Shown here in pieces: positions 7,370 to 39,001 of a stretch of 51,324 bases of DNA (position 1 is the stretch's first letter; each line of letters begins with the position of its first letter). This stretch comes from Oligoflexales bacterium. Lineage in GTDB: Bacteria; Bdellovibrionota_B; Oligoflexia; Oligoflexales; Bog-1112. The translations under genes and the position numbers were made by a program. The stretch lies in contig JBGCDR010000176.1 of the NCBI GenBank assembly GCA_045105515.1, positions 1 through 51,324 on the forward strand. The letters run 5' to 3'. The notes under the pieces were generated by a model that worked only from the letters and a program-made list of their open reading frames with translations, did no database searches and was not told the origin of the DNA.

Positions 7370-8725
7370 ATGCTTTCTACTCATCAAAAAATGAATATCT
7401 CTCCTGAAATTGATAAAAAGTACCGGTATTGGAGGATGCGAATTTTTGCCTCTATTTACTTGGGTTATGCAACTTTTTATTTTACCCGCAAGAGTTTTAC
7501 TTTTGCCATGCCCGCCTTAATAGACGATTTAGGTTATAGCAAAGCTGACCTGGGGATACTGGCTAGCATACTCTATATCAGTTATGGCATCAGCAAATTT
7601 ATCAGTGGAATTCTATCAGATCGAACAAACCCAAGATATTTTATGTCCATTGGATTAATTTTTACCGGCATTGCAAACATCTGCTTTGGTAACGCTTCAT
7701 CCTTAGTCTTTTTTGCTTTGTTTTGGGGCCTAAATGGATTTTTCCAAGGCTGGGGATTTCCACCATGTACTAAGCAGCTAACATACTGGTTCAGCAAGAA
7801 AGAAAGAGGAATGTGGTGGAGCATTTTGAGCACCGCAAACAATCTAGGAGGAGCATTAATACCTCTTCTTTCGGTCTTTGTTTTGACTAAGCTTGGCTGG
7901 AGATGGGCTATGCATATGCCAGGTATTATTAGCATTTTTATTGGAATCTTGTTACTAGCAAGCCTTCGAGGGATCCCCAGTACACTGGGCTTGCCTTCGG
8001 TGGAAGTGTATAAAGGAGAGCCGGAAGAAAATGCTACTGAACTGACAAATAAAAATGAAAGTGCACTTAGCTCGCTCTTCAACCATGTACTCAAAAGTAA
8101 ATCCATCTGGATACTAGCTATATCTTGCTTCTGTATCTATATCGTCCGTTCCGGAATCAATGACTGGATAGTAGTGTATTTGAACAAATACAAGGGCTAT
8201 CGTTTAGTTGAAGCTGCAGGAAGTGCATTTTGGTTTGAAATTGGAGGTTTTATTGGTTGCCTTGGAGCTGGATGGGGAACTGATCGTTTTTTTCAAGGCC
8301 AGAGAATTCCTTACATAATATTTTGTTCTTTAGGGCTGATTGCAAGCATTTTTTGTACTTGGTCTATACCAGGAAGCTCTATCATAGTAGAAAATGTCTT
8401 CTTATCTCTTTCTGGATTTTTTATTTTTGGTCCACAAGCTTTGATTGGTTTAGCTTCGGCAGAATTTGTCAGTAAAGAAATGGCATGCAGTGCATACGGT
8501 TTTACAGGAGGTGTTGCCTACTTAGGAGCTGCAGCTTCTGGATACCCACTTGGCAAAATCATTGACTTGTGGGGATGGGATGGTTTTTTTTGGAGCTTGC
8601 TTACCTGCTGTGGAATCTTGTTGTTGGTTCTCATACCTCTTCTAAAAGGGAATTCAGCATCGAAGTACCGCCAATCAATGATAGGGAATAAATCCTTAGT
8701 TCCTGCAAGCGGTTCTAAAGGCTAA
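7370..8725 (+). CDS. MFS organophosphate:Pi antiporter (UhpC/GlpT, OPA family)
   Basis: YRYWRMRIF..IYLGYATFYFTRKSF, YGISKF, NGFFQGWG, WFSKKERG and GFFIFGPQ motifs; about 12 TM segments. Confidence 0.88.
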   Translation: MLSTHQKMNISPEIDKKYRYWRMRIFASIYLGYATFYFTRKSFTFAMPALIDDLGYSKADLGILASILYISYGISKFISGILSDRTNPRYFMSIGLIFTGIANICFGNASSLVFFALFWGLNGFFQGWGFPPCTKQLTYWFSKKERGMWWSILSTANNLGGALIPLLSVFVLTKLGWRWAMHMPGIISIFIGILLLASLRGIPSTLGLPSVEVYKGEPEENATELTNKNESALSSLFNHVLKSKSIWILAISCFCIYIVRSGINDWIVVYLNKYKGYRLVEAAGSAFWFEIGGFIGCLGAGWGTDRFFQGQRIPYIIFCSLGLIASIFCTWSIPGSSIIVENVFLSLSGFFIFGPQALIGLASAEFVSKEMACSAYGFTGGVAYLGAAASGYPLGKIIDLWGWDGFFWSLLTCCGILLLVLIPLLKGNSASKYRQSMIGNKSLVPASGSKG

Positions 8726-14828: not shown

Positions 14829-16766
14829 TCATTCATGGGGAGTTTTACATTTGCGAGATTCTGGATATATATCAACTAAGTAAGGAGCAATCCAGTTTTT
14901 TGCTCTAGGAATAACACGACAATTAAAAACACCTTTTTTACTGCGAAAACCATAGGGATAAACCCAAAAAACATGAACTTCTCCAAAAGTAATATCTCTA
15001 GCATCATAAGGCTCTGACGCATTCAACTCTTCGGTAATTTCTCCATCATCCATTTTTACCCAAACGCTCTTAAAGCGCTTGCTTTTTAATCTTAAACGCG
15101 TTGGTGCGATATCTACCATTTTATCTAGTACCAAAAATCGCTCCAAATCTTTGTCGACTTTAAAGACAAATCTCTCGTCCTTGAATCCCGACCTCCTAAC
15201 CACCAACACATGGCTCTTATCAGAGTTTAGTACAGCAGAATCCTCATATTCCTTACTTATTATACGGTACCTCCCCCTACCTTTTCCTTTTGCAGGAGTA
15301 AAATCTAGTGGCGTCTTAACATACTGCCCGCCAAAAAGAGGCTTTCCGTCAAGCCAAACCGTCACATTATCGGGAGTTGTAGAGATGCGAAGTTTTCCCA
15401 TGTCAGTTCCGAATATATCTTTTTTATAAGCTACAAAGCCTATGCCTCCCAGGACCAGTACTAGAACAAGCAAGAGCATATATGCACCTGTTGGTGATGA
15501 GTAAGACTGGCTCCGGCGTGATGAGTGTCGATAATGCTGATGCGCTCCTGGCAAGGGAGCACTTCTAGGAGCATCATTGGATCTTTGGTGGTTAGAACTC
15601 CTACCAATCGCATGCCTTCCGGTTCCGGGAACCCCCGAGATTACAGAAAACTCTGGTTGCCTCCCGCTGAAACCGCCTTTTGGCTTAGATGATTTTGTTT
15701 GCCCTTGAGCTTTTGGTTTAAAAGAAGCTGAATGATGTTCTACTTGAAAGTTTGAACCTGTAGCAGGAGTATTGCTCATGAAAGGGTTCTGCGAAGGAAC
15801 CTGTTTTGACAGCAAGTTTTTTATTTCTAGCTGCATCTCTTTAAGCCTTGCACTCATCAACTTCTTGATAAACTCGGCTAAATCGTTAACTGTAAAGTCT
15901 GCATAGCGCTTATTTATGTATTTCCTCAGCGCTTTTTCAAACTCAGCAGCACTAGAAAAACGAGACCTGGGATCTTTACTCAAGCCTTTCATGAGTAGCT
16001 GATAAAGTTCATTGTCGACTTTAGAGTTTAGCTTTCTCAGGTCTTCTGAAATCTGGCAGCTTCTTACCATTTGAATAGTCATCACTTCGTTTTCACCTTG
16101 GAAGAGACGCTTCATTGCGAGCATTTCCCAGAGAACAATTGCTAGTGCAAAAACATCTGTCCTTGCATCAACAGACATTGCAGAAATCTGCTCTGGGCTC
16201 ATGTAAGAGTATTTTCCTTTGACAATGCCAGGTTTGGTCTCGGTTTCTTTACTGTCCGCATCAGCTATACCAAAATCGGTTACCTTTACTTCGCCCTCAA
16301 AGGATATTAGGATATTTTGCGGAGAAATATCGCGATGGACAATTTCTAGGGGTTTACCGGTTAGGTCATCCACCTTGCAATGCGCGAAATGCAAGCCTCT
16401 TGCCGCCTCAGCTATGATATATAAAGTCATAGGCACAGAGAGTTGATGGTTTTGCTTCTCACAGCTTGAGAGTACAGTCCTTAAATCCCCGCCATTTATA
16501 AACTCCATTATAATCGCATAGGAACCTTCGACTTCTTCAAAACCTTCTACGCGTACAATGTTAGCATGCTGCAACCTCTTGCAAATATGAGCTTCATCGC
16601 GAAACATTTCGATAAATTCTTGATCTTGAGCATAGTGAGGTAATATTCGTTTTATACAACAAATTCTTTGGAAACCATCTTCACCAATTTGCTTACCGAG
16701 GTAAATTTCAGCCATACCCCCGCGCGCAACTTTTTTATACAGCATGTAACGGCTACTATCTGCCAT
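14829..16766 (-). CDS. Membrane-anchored Hanks-type Ser/Thr protein kinase with an extracytoplasmic PEGA-like domain
   Basis: ARGGMAEIY, IKRILP, HRDISPQN, DFGIA, GKYSYMSPEQ and DVFALA motifs; low-complexity linker; one TM segment; ISTTPDNVTVWLDG PEGA start. Confidence 0.92.
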   Translation of the reverse strand: MADSSRYMLYKKVARGGMAEIYLGKQIGEDGFQRICCIKRILPHYAQDQEFIEMFRDEAHICKRLQHANIVRVEGFEEVEGSYAIIMEFINGGDLRTVLSSCEKQNHQLSVPMTLYIIAEAARGLHFAHCKVDDLTGKPLEIVHRDISPQNILISFEGEVKVTDFGIADADSKETETKPGIVKGKYSYMSPEQISAMSVDARTDVFALAIVLWEMLAMKRLFQGENEVMTIQMVRSCQISEDLRKLNSKVDNELYQLLMKGLSKDPRSRFSSAAEFEKALRKYINKRYADFTVNDLAEFIKKLMSARLKEMQLEIKNLLSKQVPSQNPFMSNTPATGSNFQVEHHSASFKPKAQGQTKSSKPKGGFSGRQPEFSVISGVPGTGRHAIGRSSNHQRSNDAPRSAPLPGAHQHYRHSSRRSQSYSSPTGAYMLLLVLVLVLGGIGFVAYKKDIFGTDMGKLRISTTPDNVTVWLDGKPLFGGQYVKTPLDFTPAKGKGRGRYRIISKEYEDSAVLNSDKSHVLVVRRSGFKDERFVFKVDKDLERFLVLDKMVDIAPTRLRLKSKRFKSVWVKMDDGEITEELNASEPYDARDITFGEVHVFWVYPYGFRSKKGVFNCRVIPRAKNWIAPYLVDIYPESRKCKTPHE

Positions 16767-16982
16767 AATTGTACAATCATCCGAATTTCAGCAAACTTTC
16801 GAAACCTCTACTCAGCTTCACAACGTCTTTTCGGCACTTAGGCAAAAAATATAACCAATGTTCTGACAGACAAAAGAACTTGCCGTACATAATTTAAATA
16901 TTTGGGTTTAAAGGTAGGCCATTATATGACAGCATGAATTTTGCGGCCTAGCATAACATTCACTTTTAATTTATAATTATCA

Positions 16983-17669: not shown

Positions 17670-18684
17670 ATATAAGACTCAAGTCACAGAAGAATCGCGT
17701 GGAAACTGGACCAACTTGATAGGTTATGCTCAAGAGTTTGCAGCACTTTCGCGCTTGGTCATACAAAATCGCATTCCACCAGTTATTCTCTTCACCGGTA
17801 GAGCAGGAATAGGTAAAGCGAGCGCTGTAAGAGGTGTCAGTGCTATGTTTTTTTGTGAAAAAAACATAGCATGCGGTGCTTGCCCACCATGCAAACGCAT
17901 CAAGCTTGATGAGCACCCTGACCTTCTTTTCTTAGAACCAAGCTCGGGACGGCTGAAAACCGAAGATGCTATTTTAGCTCAAGAACATCTATCACTGAAG
18001 ACCAGCCGGAAGGATGAGAGCCCCTTAGCGCGTAGGGTCATTTGTCTGATCGATGTTGACTTGATGACAAATCAAGCCATTAACCGCCTGCTCAAAACCC
18101 TAGAAGAACCACCTGAAGACTCTGCTATTCTTATGAGCACATCTCGTAAAAATGCACTACTCCCTACATTGCGTTCGCGAGCTATTAACTGGCCCTTAAC
18201 CCCGCCTCCGGTGAAGGACTCTATTGAACTTATAAAAGCACGGTGTGAGGCTAAAGAACTCAAACTCCCTAGCAAAGGTGAGGTACTCGAGGTCTTGCAG
18301 CGTTGCGGCCTAGCTCCAGGTAAGGCTATTTCCTACTTTGAGACGCAATCTCATGCTAAGTTGAAAGAAGTCAAGGACTTCTGCGCATTGTTGCAAGGAA
18401 GCTCTACGCATGAGGTAATGGCAGTAGCTGAAAGCCTTTCAAGAAAGTGGGGTTGGAGCTTGCCAGATCTTATCCAAGAAGCTGAAGTACAACTAAATCT
18501 GGAATACCGACGTAATGTTAATTCACAATTGAGCTCAGATGGTAGCTCATCTCAGCTCATGATAAGAAGGCGCAGAGCAACACTCAGTAAGATGAATCGC
18601 CTTGCAATAAAAGAGAGAATCAATTTAAACACTCAGCTAGCTGCTGAGCATTTAGGTTTTTACAGCAGCCTATATATTAAGTGA
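17650..18684 (+). CDS. holB: DNA polymerase III delta' subunit
   Basis: LFTGRAGIGK, Zn motif C..CGACPPC, HPD, NRLLKTLEEPP and LLPTLRSR; follows tmk. Confidence 0.9.
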   Translation: MEAMETKYKTQVTEESRGNWTNLIGYAQEFAALSRLVIQNRIPPVILFTGRAGIGKASAVRGVSAMFFCEKNIACGACPPCKRIKLDEHPDLLFLEPSSGRLKTEDAILAQEHLSLKTSRKDESPLARRVICLIDVDLMTNQAINRLLKTLEEPPEDSAILMSTSRKNALLPTLRSRAINWPLTPPPVKDSIELIKARCEAKELKLPSKGEVLEVLQRCGLAPGKAISYFETQSHAKLKEVKDFCALLQGSSTHEVMAVAESLSRKWGWSLPDLIQEAEVQLNLEYRRNVNSQLSSDGSSSQLMIRRRRATLSKMNRLAIKERINLNTQLAAEHLGFYSSLYIK

Positions 18685-18700
18685 AGGTTTCAAAAAAAAC

Positions 18701-20101
18701 ATGACAGAACAAGGCATCAATATTGTTGGAGTTCAATTTAGAAGATCTGGAAAAATATATGATTTTTCTTCTGACGGTCTAGCAGTCATAGTTGGTGACC
18801 ACGTGATTGTGGACTCTGATCGCGGTCCTAGCCTTGCAGAAGTAGTATCGGTTCGCTTCCACCATCCAAATGAGCATTTTGAAAAAAAGCTTAAGGCAAT
18901 AGTTCGGGTTGCAAGTAAAAAGGAAGTCAACCGACCAGCTAGGCTTACTCCAGAAGATGTGGTGAATTTTACTAAAGAGCAGGTGGATAAACACAGCCTT
19001 AAAATGCGAATTCTCAGGAGCGAAGTACAGTTTGGTGGCAACAAAGTCATTGTTTACTTCACCGCACCAGGTCGGGTTGATTTTCGTGAGCTTGTAAAAG
19101 ATCTCGCTAGCGGTCTGAAAACTCGCATAGAGTTAAAGCAGATAGGTGCACGGGATGAAACAAAACTCCTCGGAGGTATTGGCATCTGCGGAAGGGAATA
19201 CTGCTGCTCCAGTTTCTTACGTGAATTCGTTCCAGTTTCAATCAGAATGGCTAAGAACCAAAATTTAGCTTTGAACCCAAGCAAGGTATCCGGAGGATGC
19301 GGCCGCCTGCTTTGTTGTCTTACGTACGAAAACGACACATACTCTAGCTTACGTCAGAACCTTCCCCCTATTGGAGCGAGGGTAAAAGTTCCAGAACTTG
19401 ACCTCGTAGGGAAAGTAATTCGGGCCGACCTATTGAATCAGCTTGTCGCCCTAGGCACTGATGATGGTGGTCAAGTGGAAGTCAAAGTCGACAAAGTCGA
19501 AGTAATTGATAGGTACACTAATATTGGGCCTGAAGCTGGTAAGTCAGCAACTGAGGACGAGCTCGACCCTCATGCTGAACAATGGGCAGATGGCTTAGAT
19601 CTGGAAGTCTTAACGGATGAAGTATCTAAGCTAGACGAACAAAGTACAGAACCTCAAAATAAAACCCGAAATCAATCAAGAGATCGTAATTCTAGAGGTG
19701 AGCAAGGGCGCAGACACCCCAAAAGTCGCCACCAAGAAGGTGAGAAACGTCCACAGCATAAAAGTCGGGACCAACGAAGCTCTAACAAGCCCCATCGAGA
19801 CAAACCAGGAGGCGGAGGAAACCCCAAAGGTCGCTTCAAACGTGGTGAAAATCAAAACCAGCAAGTTCAGGGAGAGCAGAGAAAAGATCGAGAAGATGGA
19901 AATAGACCGTATTTTAAAAAGCCTCGCAATGAAGGTAGCCAACATAACAACAACCGACATGAAAAGAACCAGCCTGGTGAGGAACAACAAGGGAAGCCTA
20001 GACCACCTCATGCAAAAGGCGGCTTTAAGAAGAAGCATCCGCGTAACAGACCTAAAAAGCCCAATGTGCAGGGGCCTACGAATAAAAAATCTGAAGACTG
20101 A
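18701..20101 (+). CDS. ricT: PSP1/RicT (YaaT) family protein with a long disordered C-terminal tail
   Basis: RVDFRELVKDLA, RIELKQIGARDE, GICGREYCC and SGGCGRLLCCL motifs; tmk-holB-ricT synteny. Confidence 0.88.
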   Translation: MTEQGINIVGVQFRRSGKIYDFSSDGLAVIVGDHVIVDSDRGPSLAEVVSVRFHHPNEHFEKKLKAIVRVASKKEVNRPARLTPEDVVNFTKEQVDKHSLKMRILRSEVQFGGNKVIVYFTAPGRVDFRELVKDLASGLKTRIELKQIGARDETKLLGGIGICGREYCCSSFLREFVPVSIRMAKNQNLALNPSKVSGGCGRLLCCLTYENDTYSSLRQNLPPIGARVKVPELDLVGKVIRADLLNQLVALGTDDGGQVEVKVDKVEVIDRYTNIGPEAGKSATEDELDPHAEQWADGLDLEVLTDEVSKLDEQSTEPQNKTRNQSRDRNSRGEQGRRHPKSRHQEGEKRPQHKSRDQRSSNKPHRDKPGGGGNPKGRFKRGENQNQQVQGEQRKDREDGNRPYFKKPRNEGSQHNNNRHEKNQPGEEQQGKPRPPHAKGGFKKKHPRNRPKKPNVQGPTNKKSED

Positions 20102-20225: not shown

Positions 20226-21335
20226 CTATAATGACTGATTAACCACACTTTTTCGTCTAGGAGCATCACTTAGGTTCTGTTGATGTTTTGCTGCCAACTG
20301 TCCGCAAGCTGCAGAAACACCCAAACCTTTTGAATACCGCACTGGTGCGGGATATCCACGCTTTGAAAGGTATTTTTGGAATAAGAGAATGTCTGACTCC
20401 TCCGGCCTATCATAATCCATTCCCGGATGAGAATTAAAAGGGATAAGGTTCACCTTGGCTCTCAAGCCGTGTAAAAACCTCACCAACTCCTTTGCTTCAC
20501 GGATACCGCAATTCTTATTTTTAATGAGTATGTATTCGATGGTAATTTTTTCACCAGTTTTCTCCTGGTAAGAAACTAACTGTTCTTTGAGGACTGCTAG
20601 CGGATAGCGGCGGTTAATTGGCATCAGCTCACTTCGCAAGTCATCTCTAGCTGCATGCAGTGAAACTGCGAGGCTTGCCCTAGCTTGTTCTGCCAACAAT
20701 CCAATCTTTGGGGTGATCCCTGACGTAGAAACCGTCACTCTTCTTGCAGACAAACCATAGCAGTCTGCACGAGTGAACAGATTTACTGCTTTAACAACAT
20801 GCTCAAAATTATCGAGGGGCTCTCCCATACCCATAAAAACTATGTGGCTGATTTTACGCGACTCAGGCTCAAGAATTTTATTTGCAAGCAAGAATTGTCC
20901 AACGATTTCCTCTGCACTTAAATTGCGGAAAAAACCAAGCTTGCCTGTCTGGCAGAAGCTACAGGCCAACTTACAGCCGACTTGGCTCGAAACACACAAA
21001 CTTGTTCTACCTTCATAGCGAAGGATAACAGCCTCGAAAATCTGTTGTCTCGAACCCCTTAGCAACAATTTGGTAGCACCGTCACTTCCATCCAATTTAC
21101 TCATCAGCTCAGGCATAGACCAATCAAAAGTTGATGCTAACGAGTCTCTTAAAGACTTTGGAAGGTTACTCATATTTGCAAGCTCATGCTCTCTATGAGT
21201 AAAAATCCACTCTAAGAGTTGTTTGACCCTAAATTTGGGAAGCTTCCCGGAGCCATTTACAAGATGGCTTATTTCGTCCGGATACAAGGAAAATATGGAC
21301 TTAGGGGATTCATTTAATTGAGTCATACTGTTCAC
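20226..21335 (-). CDS. rlmN: 23S rRNA A2503/tRNA A37 C2-methyltransferase (radical SAM)
   Basis: CVSSQVGCKLACSFC, MGMGEP, VSLHA, NLIPFN and AACGQL motifs. Confidence 0.95.
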   Translation of the reverse strand: MNSMTQLNESPKSIFSLYPDEISHLVNGSGKLPKFRVKQLLEWIFTHREHELANMSNLPKSLRDSLASTFDWSMPELMSKLDGSDGATKLLLRGSRQQIFEAVILRYEGRTSLCVSSQVGCKLACSFCQTGKLGFFRNLSAEEIVGQFLLANKILEPESRKISHIVFMGMGEPLDNFEHVVKAVNLFTRADCYGLSARRVTVSTSGITPKIGLLAEQARASLAVSLHAARDDLRSELMPINRRYPLAVLKEQLVSYQEKTGEKITIEYILIKNKNCGIREAKELVRFLHGLRAKVNLIPFNSHPGMDYDRPEESDILLFQKYLSKRGYPAPVRYSKGLGVSAACGQLAAKHQQNLSDAPRRKSVVNQSL

Positions 21336-21592
21336 AGCTAATCCTAACTAATTTAGGAGCATAAGCTTAATATAAGCTTTGCATTATACGCATCAGTGTC
21401 TATTGATACGGCGGTAGAATAGTGAGAAATGCTCACAAAGTCAAAGAAATAGTGAAAACCAATCGTAACTCTCATTACGAAGCTTCTTACTCCAACACTT
21501 GCACCACTCTTTTAAAGGGTAGGTTAAGCTGATGAATTAATATAAAGGGTAAGTAAAGCAGATATATAAATAACCCCTTAATATTTAGTTAA

Positions 21593-25547: not shown

Positions 25548-25717
25548 ACCTGAACCTTTCTCCTCCGTTAGAGGTGTTATATGTTTAGACTCTGGTGATG
25601 ATTTGCATCTCTGGCCTTTCCTCACCAGTCGAGTTATAACACGTTTTATACCTACGGTATGATAGCAGGTAGCTACTGCCACATCTGTTATCGGTTTGAA
25701 ACCTCTATTATATAAAG

Positions 25718-28363: not shown

Positions 28364-29071
28364 ATGCTTAGCTTTGACAATAATCAGGAAGGTATAGAAA
28401 AAAAAATGGCAATTGTAAAGCAAGTCATCCTTGGATCAGGTTCAGTTTTTAGAAAACAGTTGCTTGCGAGTACTGGACTTAGTTTTATTTCCAAATCCTC
28501 GCCAATTGATGAAAAAACTATTAAAAATCCTGACCCAAAAAGACTCGCTGAGGAAAGAGGAATTGCAAAAGCCGTTGCTCTTTGTCCTTACTATCCAGAC
28601 TCGCTAATCATAGGGGCCGATCAAACCCTTTCACTCAAGGGAAAACTTTTTGAAAAAGTAACGAATCGCGCCGAAGCGAAACAATGCCTCCTCAATTTAT
28701 CTGCTCAGACTTATTACCTGCATACGGGATTCTGTCTGGCTTTCCAAGAAAGCTCAGAAAATACCACATACATTCTTCATAAAGAATTGATAGACACTCC
28801 CCTTGAATTAAGAAGCCTATCGGAGGCTGAAATTGAAGCTTACCTGGATACTGAAGAATGGCAAGATGTGGTTGGATGCAGCCGAATTGAAAGTATCGGA
28901 ATTCACTTACACACATCAACCTACCCCTTGAACACCCAAACCATCATAGGTTTACCACTCATCCCCCTACTTTCTGCTTTTAGGAAGCTAGGTATTAACA
29001 CCCTCATCAGTCCCTCTCCCCCATGGAAGTTAAATTTAGCCAATGAACAGCTAGAAGTTCACACTAAATGA
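28364..29071 (+). CDS. Maf family nucleotide pyrophosphatase, YceF-like (m7GTP pyrophosphatase signature)
   Basis: ILGSGSVFRKQLL, IDE, GADQ, RIES and IIGLPL. Aromatic residue before R, DQ and E are YceF-type rather than YhdE-type. Confidence 0.85.
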   Translation: MLSFDNNQEGIEKKMAIVKQVILGSGSVFRKQLLASTGLSFISKSSPIDEKTIKNPDPKRLAEERGIAKAVALCPYYPDSLIIGADQTLSLKGKLFEKVTNRAEAKQCLLNLSAQTYYLHTGFCLAFQESSENTTYILHKELIDTPLELRSLSEAEIEAYLDTEEWQDVVGCSRIESIGIHLHTSTYPLNTQTIIGLPLIPLLSAFRKLGINTLISPSPPWKLNLANEQLEVHTK

Positions 29072-29110
29072 GCCCCGAATAAGAGTTAGTCATTGAGTAG
29101 AACAAGCCTC

Positions 29111-29136
29111 ATGAATGCATGCAAGCATTCGTTTTT
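29111..29136 (+). terminator. Probable intrinsic terminator downstream of the Maf gene
   Basis: ATGAATGC-atgcaa-GCATTCGT hairpin followed by a T run. Confidence 0.45.
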
Positions 29137-29302
29137 AGAGAGAAAATCATCCCTCAACAGCCATTTAAAAATCCAAGTGATTCACTAAATTTTGACCTCA
29201 TTTGGAAAAGCCTTTCAAAAAGCTTGCCCCCATTTTTCCCAATTATTTAAATGTATTATTGGTAAGGTGATAAAAAAGTAGATTAATTTTATAAAAAACA
29301 AA

Positions 29303-29331
29303 TTGTAAGCAAGTTATAAGCCAGTTAATGT
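29303..29331 (+). promoter_or_regulatory. Sigma70-like promoter upstream of the structured element
   Basis: TTGTAA-N17-TAATGT preceded by an A-rich UP-like tract. Confidence 0.35.
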
Positions 29332-29342
29332 AGCAATCATAT

Positions 29343-29553
29343 CACCTCACAAACTAGGGGTGTCGGTAAAAAAACAACTTTTTTCGACGCATAGCGTCTG
29401 TTTATTTTTAACGACCAACACTGAGGGCTTGCTAACACCACCGGACTTCAAGACCGTTAGCATATACAAGCCCAGGTCGGAGCCTTTCCTACGCTGAGGG
29501 GCTCACTCGCTCGCACACAGAGAGCGCTAGAAAATAGACTCGTCGAAAAGTTG
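29343..29553 (+). ncRNA. Candidate structured RNA (standalone ncRNA or long 5' leader), family unassigned
   Basis: Nested helices 29375-29389/29541-29553, 29412-16/29475-79, 29425-31/29467-73, 29430-36/29456-62, 29480-88/29496-504 and 29508-12/29522-26, plus hairpin 29343-62. G-U pairs favour the + strand. GC-enriched relative to its flanks. Confidence 0.55.
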
Positions 29554-29618
29554 GAAGCATCTGCTACTTAGACTGTGGATCGTTTGATTGTTGAATTAAA
29601 AAGTTGAAAGGAACCTTT

Positions 29619-30899
29619 ATGGTTGCTAAGCGAATCTTTCGCGGCCTTGCTGCCGTGTCAATCGTTTCCAATTTACTTACCTACCCACTGTACGCTCAGG
29701 AATTAAGGAGCTCGCAGAAAGAAGGGGAAACTGCATCGACAAACTCACTCCTAACTCACATCAGCGGTGGCGAGGGAAAGGTTTTACCAAGGAATGTAGC
29801 CCGGGCAAGGGTCGTCAACCGCATTTACTCTTCGGGCTCTGGCTTCGATAACAGGGGCCATAAACTTGAACTAGGCCTCGACCAAAAATTGGGAGTTAGA
29901 GCACTGGTTGCTGAGTACGGAATCACAGAAAAGCTTAGTTTTCGAATGCTGGCTCCCTTTGTTTACCAAAATCAACTCACAATGGACGAAGAAGCTTTTA
30001 AACGCTCTGCCACCTATCAGAATATCTATGCTCAAAAGGCAAATGAAGTAGCCCAAGTACTTTTAGGACGCATGTGCAACGATATGGAAAGCTGCAGAAA
30101 AATAATAGACAGCCGCGATCAAACAGCCCCTCAAGACTATCCCATCACTCTCGACACTGGCGAAAAAATTATCATACCAGCAGGCAGTATTATTGCTGAT
30201 GCCATCGAAGACAGTATCCTAAATGGAGTAAGAAGGCCCAAAGACGGTGCAACCGGTTTAGGAGACATGGAGTTTGGACTCCTTTATAACGCTTACCAGT
30301 CAAACTCCCTCTCTCTTTCAGCCGGCCTTGGGCTTAGAACAGCCACTGGCAAATTTAATCTGCCCGAAGGACAGCGCCCTATTGGTGAGGGACTTAATGA
30401 CCTAGGTGCACGCCTTAATCTCGACTACTGTCCAACCGAAGGTCTGTGGATTTCATTCCAAGAACAGCTGGAGATGGCTATCTCAAAGGCTAGATGGAAG
30501 CGCCCTAGTATGCTCGATAGCAGCAAGTATAATGAAGCCGATCCTTATGAAGGTGGAGATGGACTGCCCAACTCTCGTACTATTGAAAAAGTTGGGTTTA
30601 TGACAGCTACAATGCTAAAAGCAAATTATGGACTTGGTGCCCTAGACTCCTCGTTGAAGGCACTCGCAGTTAATGCAAGCTATGAATACAGACGTGATCG
30701 AGCTAAACGCATTGATAGAGTTGAAACCACTCCTCAGTCTAATATAGAAACTGCAAGCATAGGTGCCATAGTATCCGGCCTCCCCTACCGCATTCCCCTT
30801 GAATTTGAAGCAAACTATGTTACGCCAATCAAAGGAAAAAATGTAACTCTAGCAAGAAGTACGATTGAATCTGTAGTAAGGCTCTACACACGTTTCTAA
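29619..30899 (+). CDS. Outer-membrane beta-barrel protein (transporter-like, MetA-pathway/CoxB-like barrel) with a helical insertion
   Basis: AAAGGA RBS, signal peptide (LYA-Q), EYGITEKLS..L.APF and TGLGDMEFG..Y...GLGLRTATG motifs, terminal Phe (LYTRF). Confidence 0.65.
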   Translation: MVAKRIFRGLAAVSIVSNLLTYPLYAQELRSSQKEGETASTNSLLTHISGGEGKVLPRNVARARVVNRIYSSGSGFDNRGHKLELGLDQKLGVRALVAEYGITEKLSFRMLAPFVYQNQLTMDEEAFKRSATYQNIYAQKANEVAQVLLGRMCNDMESCRKIIDSRDQTAPQDYPITLDTGEKIIIPAGSIIADAIEDSILNGVRRPKDGATGLGDMEFGLLYNAYQSNSLSLSAGLGLRTATGKFNLPEGQRPIGEGLNDLGARLNLDYCPTEGLWISFQEQLEMAISKARWKRPSMLDSSKYNEADPYEGGDGLPNSRTIEKVGFMTATMLKANYGLGALDSSLKALAVNASYEYRRDRAKRIDRVETTPQSNIETASIGAIVSGLPYRIPLEFEANYVTPIKGKNVTLARSTIESVVRLYTRF

Positions 30900-30927
30900 A
30901 AAGTTTAATTTTATGGAGATTTTTCCT

Positions 30928-33144
30928 ATGAAATATTTAAATTATCTCAGAGTTATTTCATCTATTTTATTAAGCAGTATGATCTTTTCTAGTTGCGGCA
31001 AAGTGAAGGATGGAAAACTTGCTGCCCCGAAGGACACGAAAGACTCACACACAAAGTGGTTGCAGTTAAAGGATGCTTTAAAGCTTACTGAAAAACTTGA
31101 AGATCCAACTCGGTACCTAACCGATGAGTCCCTTCACCCAGAGTACGAAAAATTAATATTCGAGGCCGCAAAACGGTACAATCGAGATGCTTTTAAAACC
31201 CGGTGTGCATCTATTGAAGGAATTCGCCCACTCAATATTAAGCGTAACAAAAACATAGATATTTACCTCTTCGAATATAAACTGCAGAAAAATTTCGCTG
31301 GAGAAAAGGAAGACCAGACACGCAGTGCTTACCTTACAATTCCTAAAACTCAAGAAAATACTGATATAAAATTTCCACTTATGGTTTACTCTCATGGTGG
31401 AGACACCGGTGTTAGCTATACCAAAGAACTATCCAAGCTAGATAAACTTTTAGAAGAATATATTATATTGGCTCCAGCTTTCCCTGGAGAAACTCTATCA
31501 AGCGAAGAAGAACCAAATGATCCTAATGGCGAAATTTGGTTAGGTACAAAAGCTGTAGGCCTAAGCACACCTTGGGATAATGATGTGGATGACCTTTTAG
31601 GAGCCCATGATTGCCTTGCCAGAGATATTTACTTAAATTTAGAAAAACCCAAGTATCCTTCTGAAAAAACTCATTTGGTCCAAAAGTTAGCGAATGAAAT
31701 AAATGAAAATCAACAAACTAGTATCGAAGAAGTCCTTCAGGATATAAGAACTAAAACCAAGACTTACGGTGCTGATCACCTGCTCGGAGGTGTAGAAAAC
31801 TACCCACTAAGTGTCGTAATGGGTGCTTCTAGAGGGGGTTTAGTAGCTTCCTTGGCTGTGGCTAAGTCAGGTGCTATTTTATCCTCCGCATTGCAAGCAA
31901 ACAATAAAGGGAATAATAATGAAGGTGATAACTCTGATAACAGAATTACATTAATGGATTTTGTGACTTCTAAGGGAACATTAAGCAAGAAGTCCCTTGC
32001 GATGTTCCAGCATCTAGGCGAAAAATATGGTAGTGTACCACCTCTTTTCTCTGGCCTTGCAACCCTATCTGCACCAGCAACTGTTACCATCGGAAGCTTT
32101 CGCGTCATCTTGGAACAAATGGTAAAAGGCAATACAGACCTAACGGTTGCAAAACATCTTCCTGGGATTAGAAACCTTGGGCATATCTTTGACCGCTACC
32201 TTAAAACAGGGGATGTGGAGGAAGCAAAGTTTGAAATCGTTTTGAGAGATTTATCTTATGTTTCACCACTAATTATTGCGGCTCTAAAAGATTGGGGATA
32301 CCCAGCAAAAGGTGGATCCATGCTTTTTATTCACGGCAATAAAGACAAGGTAGTCCCCGTGGAGCAAACCCAAGCAGCATTTAATATTTTCCAAAATTTA
32401 AAGGAAAGCGAAAAAATACAAGCTATGACTGGTTCCGTAACTGGAATCAAGGTAATCAAACGCATCTTTGATTCACAGGAAAATCTTGATAATCAAATCA
32501 GATTCCACTTGGATGATGCTTTTGAAAATAGTCATAGTTATCATTATTCTCACTTACTTCAGGACCAAACCCTCAAGGCTGTAATGTCTAGCAAAAACTA
32601 CGACTCTGTTCCCAAGTTCATTTCAGATATTGATGATAAACTAAAAAACGACGCCATGTTCAGGTTTTTCTTACCACCGGAAAGCTTAAATAAATTTAAT
32701 GAAGTCAGAGACTTATATTTTTTAGCTGGAAATGCCGAGGGCATGCGCCAGCAAAAAGTAAAGGCATTACAAGCAAGTATGAAACATATTGTCCAAGCCA
32801 GCACATACCATTCTAGTAACTTTATAGAAATTGATGGTGAAGAACATGTGACCTTTACCGAGCAAGACATACCTGAAAAAGAACGAATCCTAGAGATGCT
32901 TTACCTTGCGAACGCTCTAAAAGCAAAAGAGTTTGCATTGCATCTTAAGTCAGAAGAACTCTTGCATTTAGCTGTCCTTTATCAAATTAGCAATGGCGGA
33001 TTTAAAAACGGAGAAACCACATTAGATACTGGCGCAGTTCCAAAAGTGGTTAAACTCAGCAGAAATAAGGGAGATTTCTTCAGCCTTAAAGAAGCCCATG
33101 GCCCTTATGATGTAGTTGAAGCCTGGGGCAAGATGCTTAAGTAG
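30928..33144 (+). CDS. Lipoprotein alpha/beta-hydrolase (esterase/peptidase-like)
   Basis: GGAG RBS; lipobox FSS-C; PLMVYSHGG; nucleophile elbow GASRGG; IHGNKDKVVP acid motif; later His candidates. Confidence 0.75.
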   Translation: MKYLNYLRVISSILLSSMIFSSCGKVKDGKLAAPKDTKDSHTKWLQLKDALKLTEKLEDPTRYLTDESLHPEYEKLIFEAAKRYNRDAFKTRCASIEGIRPLNIKRNKNIDIYLFEYKLQKNFAGEKEDQTRSAYLTIPKTQENTDIKFPLMVYSHGGDTGVSYTKELSKLDKLLEEYIILAPAFPGETLSSEEEPNDPNGEIWLGTKAVGLSTPWDNDVDDLLGAHDCLARDIYLNLEKPKYPSEKTHLVQKLANEINENQQTSIEEVLQDIRTKTKTYGADHLLGGVENYPLSVVMGASRGGLVASLAVAKSGAILSSALQANNKGNNNEGDNSDNRITLMDFVTSKGTLSKKSLAMFQHLGEKYGSVPPLFSGLATLSAPATVTIGSFRVILEQMVKGNTDLTVAKHLPGIRNLGHIFDRYLKTGDVEEAKFEIVLRDLSYVSPLIIAALKDWGYPAKGGSMLFIHGNKDKVVPVEQTQAAFNIFQNLKESEKIQAMTGSVTGIKVIKRIFDSQENLDNQIRFHLDDAFENSHSYHYSHLLQDQTLKAVMSSKNYDSVPKFISDIDDKLKNDAMFRFFLPPESLNKFNEVRDLYFLAGNAEGMRQQKVKALQASMKHIVQASTYHSSNFIEIDGEEHVTFTEQDIPEKERILEMLYLANALKAKEFALHLKSEELLHLAVLYQISNGGFKNGETTLDTGAVPKVVKLSRNKGDFFSLKEAHGPYDVVEAWGKMLK

Positions 33145-37981: not shown

Positions 37982-38113
37982 AATCATTCCTTATGTTTGG
38001 TCCAGAAAAAACCTAAAATGAACCTTGCTGTTTTCATTTAATGTTGTTAAGGACTGCAAAATTATAGTCTTTTTTCTAAGACCACCCTAGCGTTAATTTT
38101 GAACGGGGATAAA

Positions 38114-39001
38114 ATGATACGAAGAACCCTATATGGAAGCAACAATCACTTTCGTCTTTTAATTACCGTTCCGCATGGATCTATTGGCGAAGCCTTTTTT
38201 GCACGCTACCCTCACTTTTGGCAAAGCTTTGCTGAGCCGGGCGAGATAGAGGCATTCTACAGGTATTTAAGAATTGAGCAAGATTTTGGATCCAGAGAAC
38301 TAGCGCACCGCTTAGCCTTCTGGGTCAATACCTTAATGCCCCAACTCGGAGTTCTAATTCTGGAAAAGGACTATCCTCGTGGAATTCTCGATGGCGGTAG
38401 ACAATTGAGCCATTGCCTGCGTTCCATGGTCCCTCCAGCACTCATGCAAAGCTTGGAGTTAGACTTGCTACAGGTCCACACTTCCACCTTGGAAGTAGTA
38501 AGACAGGAGATAGTAGCGCTAAATCAGCGAAATGGTGTTTTGGTTGACCTCCATACCATGGCACCTTATTGTCCCCACTTCATGCAAGGTGAGAAAAATT
38601 TACCAGATCACTACGATAGCCTTACTGATTACCTAAATCACTTTCTTGATCCAAACTTTCACCATCCTGACTTCAAAAGAGATATTGACCTCATCACTGA
38701 AGATGGGAGTGGCAATATAATTGCCGACCAACAACTAACTTTAGCTTTTTCTTCAACTCTCTCCGCCCACTTCCCCATTGCATTCAACAATCCCTATGCC
38801 GCCCTCCCTCACTTTATGATGCATGAGTACCTATGCAGTAGTAGAGGAATAGCAATCGATGTGCCCAAAGACCTCATCAGTTATCAACAGGCACCTAATT
38901 TTAACCTAGAACGCTTTGACTTGTGCATGCAAAAGCTTGACAGACTTGCTAGCTTAATGGCTGAATCAATACAGGCTTTTTTCACTAAGGAAAATTGCTA
39001 A
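38114..39001 (+). CDS. N-formylglutamate amidohydrolase-like (Zn-carboxypeptidase fold) protein
   Basis: ITVPHG, EQDFGS, RGILDGGR, VDLHT and NNPY motifs follow the FGase pattern. Confidence 0.55.
   Translation: MIRRTLYGSNNHFRLLITVPHGSIGEAFFARYPHFWQSFAEPGEIEAFYRYLRIEQDFGSRELAHRLAFWVNTLMPQLGVLILEKDYPRGILDGGRQLSHCLRSMVPPALMQSLELDLLQVHTSTLEVVRQEIVALNQRNGVLVDLHTMAPYCPHFMQGEKNLPDHYDSLTDYLNHFLDPNFHHPDFKRDIDLITEDGSGNIIADQQLTLAFSSTLSAHFPIAFNNPYAALPHFMMHEYLCSSRGIAIDVPKDLISYQQAPNFNLERFDLCMQKLDRLASLMAESIQAFFTKENC

Follow-up and report, generated by a model that had tools for sequence, protein, structure and literature searches.

The locus and the architecture of the element

The Oligoflexales are a poorly studied, largely uncultured lineage in the predatory phylum Bdellovibrionota. 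In one such bacterium (GenBank assembly GCA_045105515.1, contig JBGCDR010000176.1), we analysed a stretch of 51,324 nucleotides (nt), hereafter the window, in which a gap at 29072–29618 separates a maf-family gene from a gene for a putative outer-membrane β-barrel protein. A preliminary description had picked out a multi-stem structured RNA in this gap, the element that concerns us here. Judged by sequence comparison, it is a real structured RNA of ~220 nt on the plus strand whose shape is kept in a sister species; it belongs to no known Rfam family and, as far as the genomes searched indicate, is restricted to one genus.

GC content is 25–26% at 29200–29349 and 50–53% at 29400–29549, as expected for a GC-enriched block within an AT-rich gap ahead of the barrel gene. 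All helices and motifs listed in the preliminary description were recovered at their places by a sequence check and by listing of inverted and direct repeats, including a repeated CTGAGGG motif (direct-repeat family D2). The features of the locus are as follows, where MFE denotes the minimum-free-energy structure and ORF an open reading frame.

28364–29071: maf gene (PF02545, E 2.7e-33)
29113–29136: hairpin GAATGCATG/CAAGCATTC with a T run after it, 42 nt past the maf stop codon
29234–29302: AT-rich conserved block upstream of the putative promoter; candidate roles are an UP element, regulator sites or a longer transcript
29263–77 and 29284–98: two A-tract repeats, 21 bp apart (repeat family D1)
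29303–29331, plus strand: putative sigma-70-type promoter TTGTAA-N17-TAATGT, read from the sequence
29343–29362, plus strand: 5′ hairpin CACCUC/GGGGUG, 6 bp with an 8-nt loop, in the MFE and centroid structures; invariant in the sister species
29375–29553, plus strand: closed multi-stem domain, a three-part basal rod and a four-way junction with arms A, B and C, in the MFE, centroid and two-species consensus structures
29375–29389 / 29541–29553: outer closing helix CAACTTTTTTCGACG/CGTCGAAAAGTTG (inverted repeats I14 and I20)
29375–78:29550–53, 29382–89:29541–48 and 29396–403:29532–39, plus strand: basal rod pairs
29386–29409, plus strand: local hairpin GACGC-AUA-GCGUC (29386–98), then a U-rich run; invariant in the sister species
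29412–29479, plus strand: arm A
29412–16 / 29475–79: arm A helix CGACC/GGTCG
29425–31 / 29467–73: arm A helix GGGCTTG/CAAGCCC
29431–36 / 29456–61: arm A helix GCTAAC/GTTAGC
29480–29504, plus strand: arm B, a 9-bp hairpin
29508–29526, plus strand: arm C, with CGCTC/GAGCG at 29508–12 / 29522–26
29570–29581, plus strand: AGACUGUGGAUC, a block after the domain and ahead of the ribosome-binding site, with no change in the sister species
29598–29606, plus strand: repeat of the closing-helix 3′ strand, AAAAAGUUG (I13, 100% complementary; D4)
29608–29621, plus strand: Shine-Dalgarno sequence AAGGAA and the barrel ATG at 29619; conserved in the sister species
29619–30899, plus strand: putative outer-membrane β-barrel gene (ORF; product with a signal peptide)
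30913–33144, plus strand: gene of 743 codons, the conserved partner downstream of the barrel gene

The closed domain ends 66 nt before the barrel start codon. Between them, the spacer at 29555–29569 is the segment of the leader that has diverged most from the sister species. At the barrel start itself, a small local hairpin involving codons 2–3 is predicted.

The fold is kept on the plus strand in a sister species

By BLAST against 41 related genomes, the element had a single match, at 84% identity over 319 of 321 bases, in the sister species G001, which is the single other genome of the genus. Both copies of the element have the same orientation and stand at the same place, after maf and before the barrel gene. 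Over a 219-nt core, 186 of the 219 columns are identical between the species (85%), with 32 substitutions and one indel; the '92% mean column identity' reported by the aligner differs in meaning from this pairwise identity. Across the 27.6 kb of synteny, coding stretches are 74–77% identical, and the barrel protein is 72% identical to its counterpart.

Conservation of the gap is uneven. About 200 bases, from 29020 to ~29233, are unalignable; alignment resumes at ~29234, and identity is 0.92 at 29260–29299 and 0.94 at 29346–29445, the latter ranking third among non-overlapping 100-nt windows in the 27.6 kb. Identity falls to 0.75–0.82 in the 3′ half of the element. The other top-six conserved windows that were checked lie over gene starts (25609–25708, 18680–18779, 38049–38148 and 16669–16768). 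These four score 0.92–0.97 against the sister species and correspond to gene starts or divergent promoter regions, most of 38049–38148 being intergenic, between the aminopeptidase N gene and the one that follows.

A consensus structure of the two species comprises 54 pairs, all of which can form in both. One change is compensatory, A-U to G-C at 29377:29551, and five one-sided changes keep their pairs. Because such a consensus is chosen to fit both sequences and is biased accordingly, we based the substitution test on a structure predicted from one species and re-dealt the 32 substitutions of the other 20,000 times to positions of the same base. With the window structure, 12 pairs were touched, of which 7 were kept and 5 broken, against ~12.3 expected (P ~0.0008); the five broken pairs sit at helix ends or are marginal. 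The reciprocal test with the G001 structure gave 11 pairs touched and 7 kept (P ~0.0026). On the minus strand, 25 pairs were touched and 6 kept (P 0.999), and of 74 control segments, each 219 nt long and taken from this synteny, none reached P <= 0.01. The fraction of touched pairs that were kept is 0.58 for the element, compared with a mean of 0.30 and a maximum of 0.52 for the controls. Since helices are spared on the plus strand and not on the minus strand, and since the controls are null, we accept the plus-strand RNA structure as real. The plus strand had initially been chosen from G-U pairs, and the strand-specific test bears out that choice. The search for homologues and covariation produced one congeneric homologue with its helices kept, but the usual covariation statistics are impossible with two sequences, the element being found in only 2 of 131 genomes of the class.

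Folding energy points in the same direction with less force. The plus strand of 29340–29560 folds at -66.4 kcal/mol (z-score -4.30), and 1 of 200 dinucleotide shuffles was equal or better; for the core, 29375–29553, the z-score is -3.96 and none of 200 shuffles was as good. The minus strand gave -2.38. As this stretch had been selected out of 51 kb in the preliminary description, we also scanned the whole plus strand without selection, in 465 grid windows of 220 nt set 110 nt apart (20–30 shuffles each), where z-scores had a mean of -0.36, a standard deviation of 1.19 and a minimum of -3.79. On this grid, 29371–29590 has a z-score of -3.18 and ranks 6 of 465. The expectation of a better-than-shuffled fold was therefore borne out, but the energy is supportive and unexceptional, and cannot decide alone. 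The lowest plus-strand values on the grid belong to 21231–21450 (-3.79) and 8031–8250 (-3.59), noisy estimates from 30 shuffles each.

Relation to known RNA families and distribution

None of 4227 Rfam models matched the window at gathering scores. At E <= 10, hits in 29050–29700 were noise, the best having an E value of 1.3 and 21.6 bits against a cut-off of 55. This agrees with the preliminary description, in which the core of no known riboswitch had been recognised. ARAGORN found no transfer RNA or transfer-messenger RNA gene in 29200–29700. A divergent 6S-like RNA, one of the identities put forward earlier, can be practically discounted: the element is ~180 nt long with paired ends, like 6S RNA, but no 6S match appears at E <= 10 in 29050–29700, and the genome (G000) carries a genuine 6S RNA on another contig (C35:59571–59768, minus strand, 58.3 bits; gathering score 46.4). 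Prediction and two-species consensus alike give a basal rod topped by a four-way junction, not the 6S rod with its large central bubble. As far as sequence and structure models can tell, the identification is already refuted.

A small protein gene was likewise rejected. The 45-residue plus-strand ORF is frameshifted in the sister species, and the 34-residue minus-strand ORF has four amino-acid changes and no silent change, followed by a frameshift (both compared by eye). The element is single-copy in its genome by BLAST and covariance model; with one copy there and none in phages, plasmids or viral contigs, a miniature inverted-repeat or other repeated mobile element was dismissed.

To chart its distribution, we used a covariance model, R1, built from the two sequences (219 positions, 54 pairs). 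At class level it matched 2 of 131 genomes at E <= 0.01, those of the window and the sister species, and no further copies were found across these 131 genomes. At E <= 1, it matched 4 of 16 genomes of the family, two of these being weak partial matches covering little beyond the 5′ hairpin, while in the order it matched 3 of 95 genomes. One of the weak matches, in G002 (18.5 bits), was discarded as it lies inside a 326-residue ORF on the opposite strand. With its filters off, R1 reached at best 9.3 bits on seven loci with orthologous genes. The 5′ hairpin motif itself is not enriched elsewhere in the genome (3+3 occurrences, compared with 5+3 for a reversed-pattern control). Pattern scanning with one genome for each species gave 11 loci, of which only the congener is real (268.7 bits by R1); the others were rejected, R1 giving them <= 11.7 bits over the scanned word only. 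The same scan of metagenome contigs gave one locus, which lies within an ORF, is not matched by R1 and was put down to chance. Collections of phage, plasmid and viral contigs gave none.

Four sequencing runs contain the sequence, all as DNA contigs and none as RNA, and three of them may be where this DNA comes from. The one run with a small share covers parts of the flanking genes and none of the element. Among the papers found on Oligoflexia and riboswitches, none deals with an RNA of this kind, to judge from title and abstract opening.

The barrel/hydrolase-like gene pair and a second folded RNA in a sister genus

The barrel protein has a weak, sub-threshold resemblance to PF13557 Phenol_MetA_deg (18.1 bits, cut-off 22) and no NCBIfam or PDB sequence match. 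Its relatives occur in 14 of 16 genomes of the family and 41 of 95 of the order. The 743-residue protein encoded downstream resembles Peptidase_S9, FSH1 and BD-FAE in Pfam, all sub-threshold (E 0.02–0.05), so that neither protein reaches a Pfam cut-off. Its language-model look-alikes in the Atlas are S9/DLH-type hydrolases (score 0.96), and from its sequence it is probably an α/β-fold serine hydrolase. Of 14 loci examined, 6 have the hydrolase-like gene next to the barrel gene, and some loci end too early to judge. The pair at 29619–33144 is kept across several genera of the family (L009, L011–L014, L019).

By a rough ORF-based estimate, gaps upstream of the barrel orthologues are mostly <260 nt, and the 517–547 nt of the window's genus is the longest among them. 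Another genus of the same family, g11 (G011 and G013), has a gap of 370–415 nt, and here a different folded RNA precedes the orthologous barrel gene. This four-way-junction RNA of ~100 nt lies at L012:1217–1314 (plus strand) and L011:2819–2915 (minus strand). It has a 9-bp closing helix and three hairpins, its MFE and centroid structures are the same, its z-scores are -4.3 and -5.1, and substitutions spare its helices (P ~0.001). No Rfam family matches it, and among 95 genomes of the order it was found in 2, restricted to its genus.

The two elements are alike in preceding orthologous barrel genes, each on the strand of its gene, and they end 76 nt (g11) and 66 nt (window) from the start codon. 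Their topology is also similar, with a closing helix, an AU-rich joiner of 6–8 nt, three hairpins and a 5-nt joiner, and each is confined to its own genus and outside Rfam. They differ in length (~100 versus ~180 nt) and share no detectable sequence similarity. A model of the g11 RNA, R2, does not match the window at the element, and R1 likewise misses the g11 element. As neither model detects the other, common descent of the two is unproven.

Predicted transcription and alternative pairings

Downstream of maf, the hairpin and T run at 29113–29136 are probably the maf terminator, a site that the rule of our terminator scan omits; given its presence, the element is probably transcribed from a promoter of its own. 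The -35 hexamer of the putative promoter is unchanged in the sister species, where the -10 is TAATCT. From its position, transcription would start near 29338–29340, and a start near 29339 would set the invariant hairpin 29343–29362 a few bases from the 5′ end. The sole terminator-like site listed by the scan is 29386–29409, which resembles a weak intrinsic terminator and stands at the 5′ edge of the domain; one such site was found where 0.9 are expected in shuffles. From the domain end at 29553 to the ATG at 29619, the scan showed nothing terminator-like. With no terminator ahead of the barrel gene, co-transcription is the simplest reading, which would make the element a cis-acting 5′ leader.

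The preliminary description called the RNA switchable and possibly riboswitch-like. The competing pairings behind this idea do exist: TAGCGTCTGT at 29392–401 can pair with ACAGA..CGCTA at 29517–29, and GACGC/GCGTC can form the local hairpin at 29386–98. The latter and the middle of the basal rod exclude each other, the MFE structure using the hairpin and the centroid the rod. In addition, the closing strand 29375–29383 is perfectly complementary to both 29546–29553 and 29598–29606 (I13, I20, D4), and the MFE structure of the full leader pairs it with 29598–29606. Constrained folds of the window are isoenergetic, at -87.8 kcal/mol with the domain closed and -88.2 kcal/mol for the alternative, but the sister species favours the closed domain by 5.4 kcal/mol (-82.3 versus -76.9 kcal/mol). 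Modelled accessibility of the Shine-Dalgarno sequence and start codon is equal in either conformer in both species, the hairpin at codons 2–3 dominating, and no terminator lies between the domain and the start codon. A switch is thus possible on paper, but the models link no output to it, and riboswitch status is unsupported. A further pairing, of 29331–29341 with the start-codon region (I8), was set aside because it is not kept in the sister species and lies upstream of the presumed transcription start.

A proposed leader element of the barrel/hydrolase operon and its alternatives

At about an even call, we favour a lineage-specific, cis-acting leader element of the barrel/hydrolase operon. 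A long 5′ untranslated leader (~280 nt) of this two-gene operon would house the element. Transcription from the element's own promoter would begin near 29339, and the transcript would open with the 5′-proximal hairpin, followed by the rod-closed four-way junction at 29375–29553; meeting no terminator, it would continue into the barrel gene. The element may then tune operon expression in cis. The likeliest modes would be protection or marking of the messenger RNA (mRNA) through the 5′ hairpin and compact domain, or service as a binding platform for a factor, whether protein, small RNA or metabolite.

Several observations weigh against this proposal. The comparison involves only two sequences with one compensatory pair, and with two rows the shuffle control of the covariation tool is uninformative (250/500). 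The homologue in the sister species has a z-score of only -2.05, with 8 of 200 shuffles as good, and on the unselected grid the folding energy of the element is not exceptional. The letters TTGTAA-N17-TAATGT do stand where a promoter had been described, but a consensus scan lists no plus-strand promoter at its threshold and the candidate is weak; transcription may instead use an alternative promoter, a conserved TTAAAT near 29248, with a start at ~29260. The start, the end and the co-transcription of the transcript with the barrel gene are all inferred from the sequence. Most barrel orthologues in the order have a short upstream gap and carry no such element, so the operon can do without it. 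Finally, as access to the ribosome site is the same whichever closing helix forms, the structure implies no control mechanism.

Of the alternatives, a separate trans-acting small RNA, either the whole element processed from the leader or a ~70-nt transcript ending at 29386–29409, seems unlikely. The layout of 29343–29409, with a 5′ hairpin, an A-rich linker, a GC hairpin and a U-run, does resemble terminator-ended small RNAs; this half is also the best conserved (0.90–0.95), and the spacer at 29555–29569 is poorly conserved. However, the terminator-like hairpin has only 5 pairs and its occurrence matches shuffle expectation, structure and conservation extend past it to 29553, no intrinsic terminator follows the domain at the 3′ end of the conserved structure, and the element holds the same place before the same gene in both species. 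We regard as rather improbable the view that the segment has no function as RNA and consists of DNA-level signals, such as a promoter and regulator sites, or of a relic insertion with terminal inverted repeats that look like a closing helix. Conservation of the block ahead of the putative promoter equals that of the RNA (0.92), the closing helix is formally a 13–15-bp terminal inverted repeat, and the folding-energy rank of only 6 of 465 and the sample of two would fit. Sparing of helices on the plus strand (P 0.0008) and not on the minus strand (0.999) would be unexpected under DNA-level constraint, however; moreover, an insertion would have to be reconciled with a single copy, with its absence from the rest of the 131 class genomes and from phages, plasmids and viral contigs, and with element ends at which no target-site duplication is seen.

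A metabolite riboswitch of a new class appears similarly doubtful. Its junction would be the aptamer, and ligand binding would set whether 29375–29383 pairs with 29546–29553 or with 29598–29606, beside the ribosome-binding site. Such a role would suit the setting, a folded island rich in GC that stands in an AT-rich gap immediately before transport and hydrolase genes. It would also suit the two perfect partners of the closing strand, isoenergetic in the window and still pairable in the sister species. In arm B, an anti-Shine-Dalgarno-like CCUUUC pairs with a Shine-Dalgarno-like GAGGGG, and in the sister species the partner of CCUUUC is GAAAGG, identical to the real site. The significant substitution test is evidence of structure rather than of ligand binding. 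Weighed against these are the restriction to one genus (2 of 131 class genomes, with nothing added by pattern scans of genomes and metagenomes), the failure of any known class to match even at E <= 10, the unchanged ribosome-site access and the one-sided preference of the sister species, the lack of a terminator downstream of the domain, and a gene context that suggests no candidate ligand. Binding of CsrA to the leader through GGA motifs, one of them in the ribosome-binding site, is highly improbable. The genome encodes CsrA (75.1 bits), and the 282-nt leader has five GGA (29443, 29479, 29553, 29577 and 29610). The sister species retains three of these, among them that of the Shine-Dalgarno sequence and that in AGACUGUGGAUC. 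Five per 282 nt is about what composition predicts by our estimate, though; the sister species lacks the other two, none of the five lies in a clear hairpin loop of the predicted folds, and the conserved multi-stem domain would be left unexplained. A broader idea, to which we give little credence, is that the family's barrel/hydrolase operon is governed by fast-evolving sensor RNAs. The window and g11 elements would then be one class that has diverged past recognition by sequence, or two independent inventions. Both would bind one and the same signal, perhaps a compound that the hydrolase uses or makes and that enters via the barrel, and would switch the closing helix from one partner to the other.

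Significance and comparison with known systems

The element is a candidate resting on two sequences, and neither a ligand nor an effect can be proposed for it with confidence. If confirmed, it would represent a new family of structured RNAs in Oligoflexales, linked to a pair of genes for an outer-membrane channel and a hydrolase. The occurrence of different folded leaders before the same gene in two genera would make this operon useful for studying the origin and turnover of regulatory RNA structures.

Pipelines of the Breaker laboratory have reportedly drawn orphan structured-RNA and riboswitch candidates from long GC-rich intergenic regions of AT-rich bacterial genomes (PMC6429828, PMC8723152, PMC11109978). 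As reported, the candidates resemble the element in being GC-rich folded islands in AT-rich gaps upstream of a gene and outside any curated family; they differ in having many representatives with covariation, whereas the element has two from one genus and no recognisable expression platform. The comparison with 6S RNA (RF00013) ends with similar length and paired ends, since the element fails the family model and has a branched fold in place of the 6S rod with its bubble. The 5′ untranslated region of E. coli ompA is a structured leader whose 5′-proximal hairpin stabilises the mRNA of an outer-membrane protein. The two leaders have no sequence or structural homology, the element is larger and forms a rod-closed four-way junction, and an effect on stability would be suggested by analogy only. 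As with ompA, though, the mRNA of an outer-membrane barrel would carry a long, structured leader, and its first hairpin would stand within a few bases of the presumed 5′ end.

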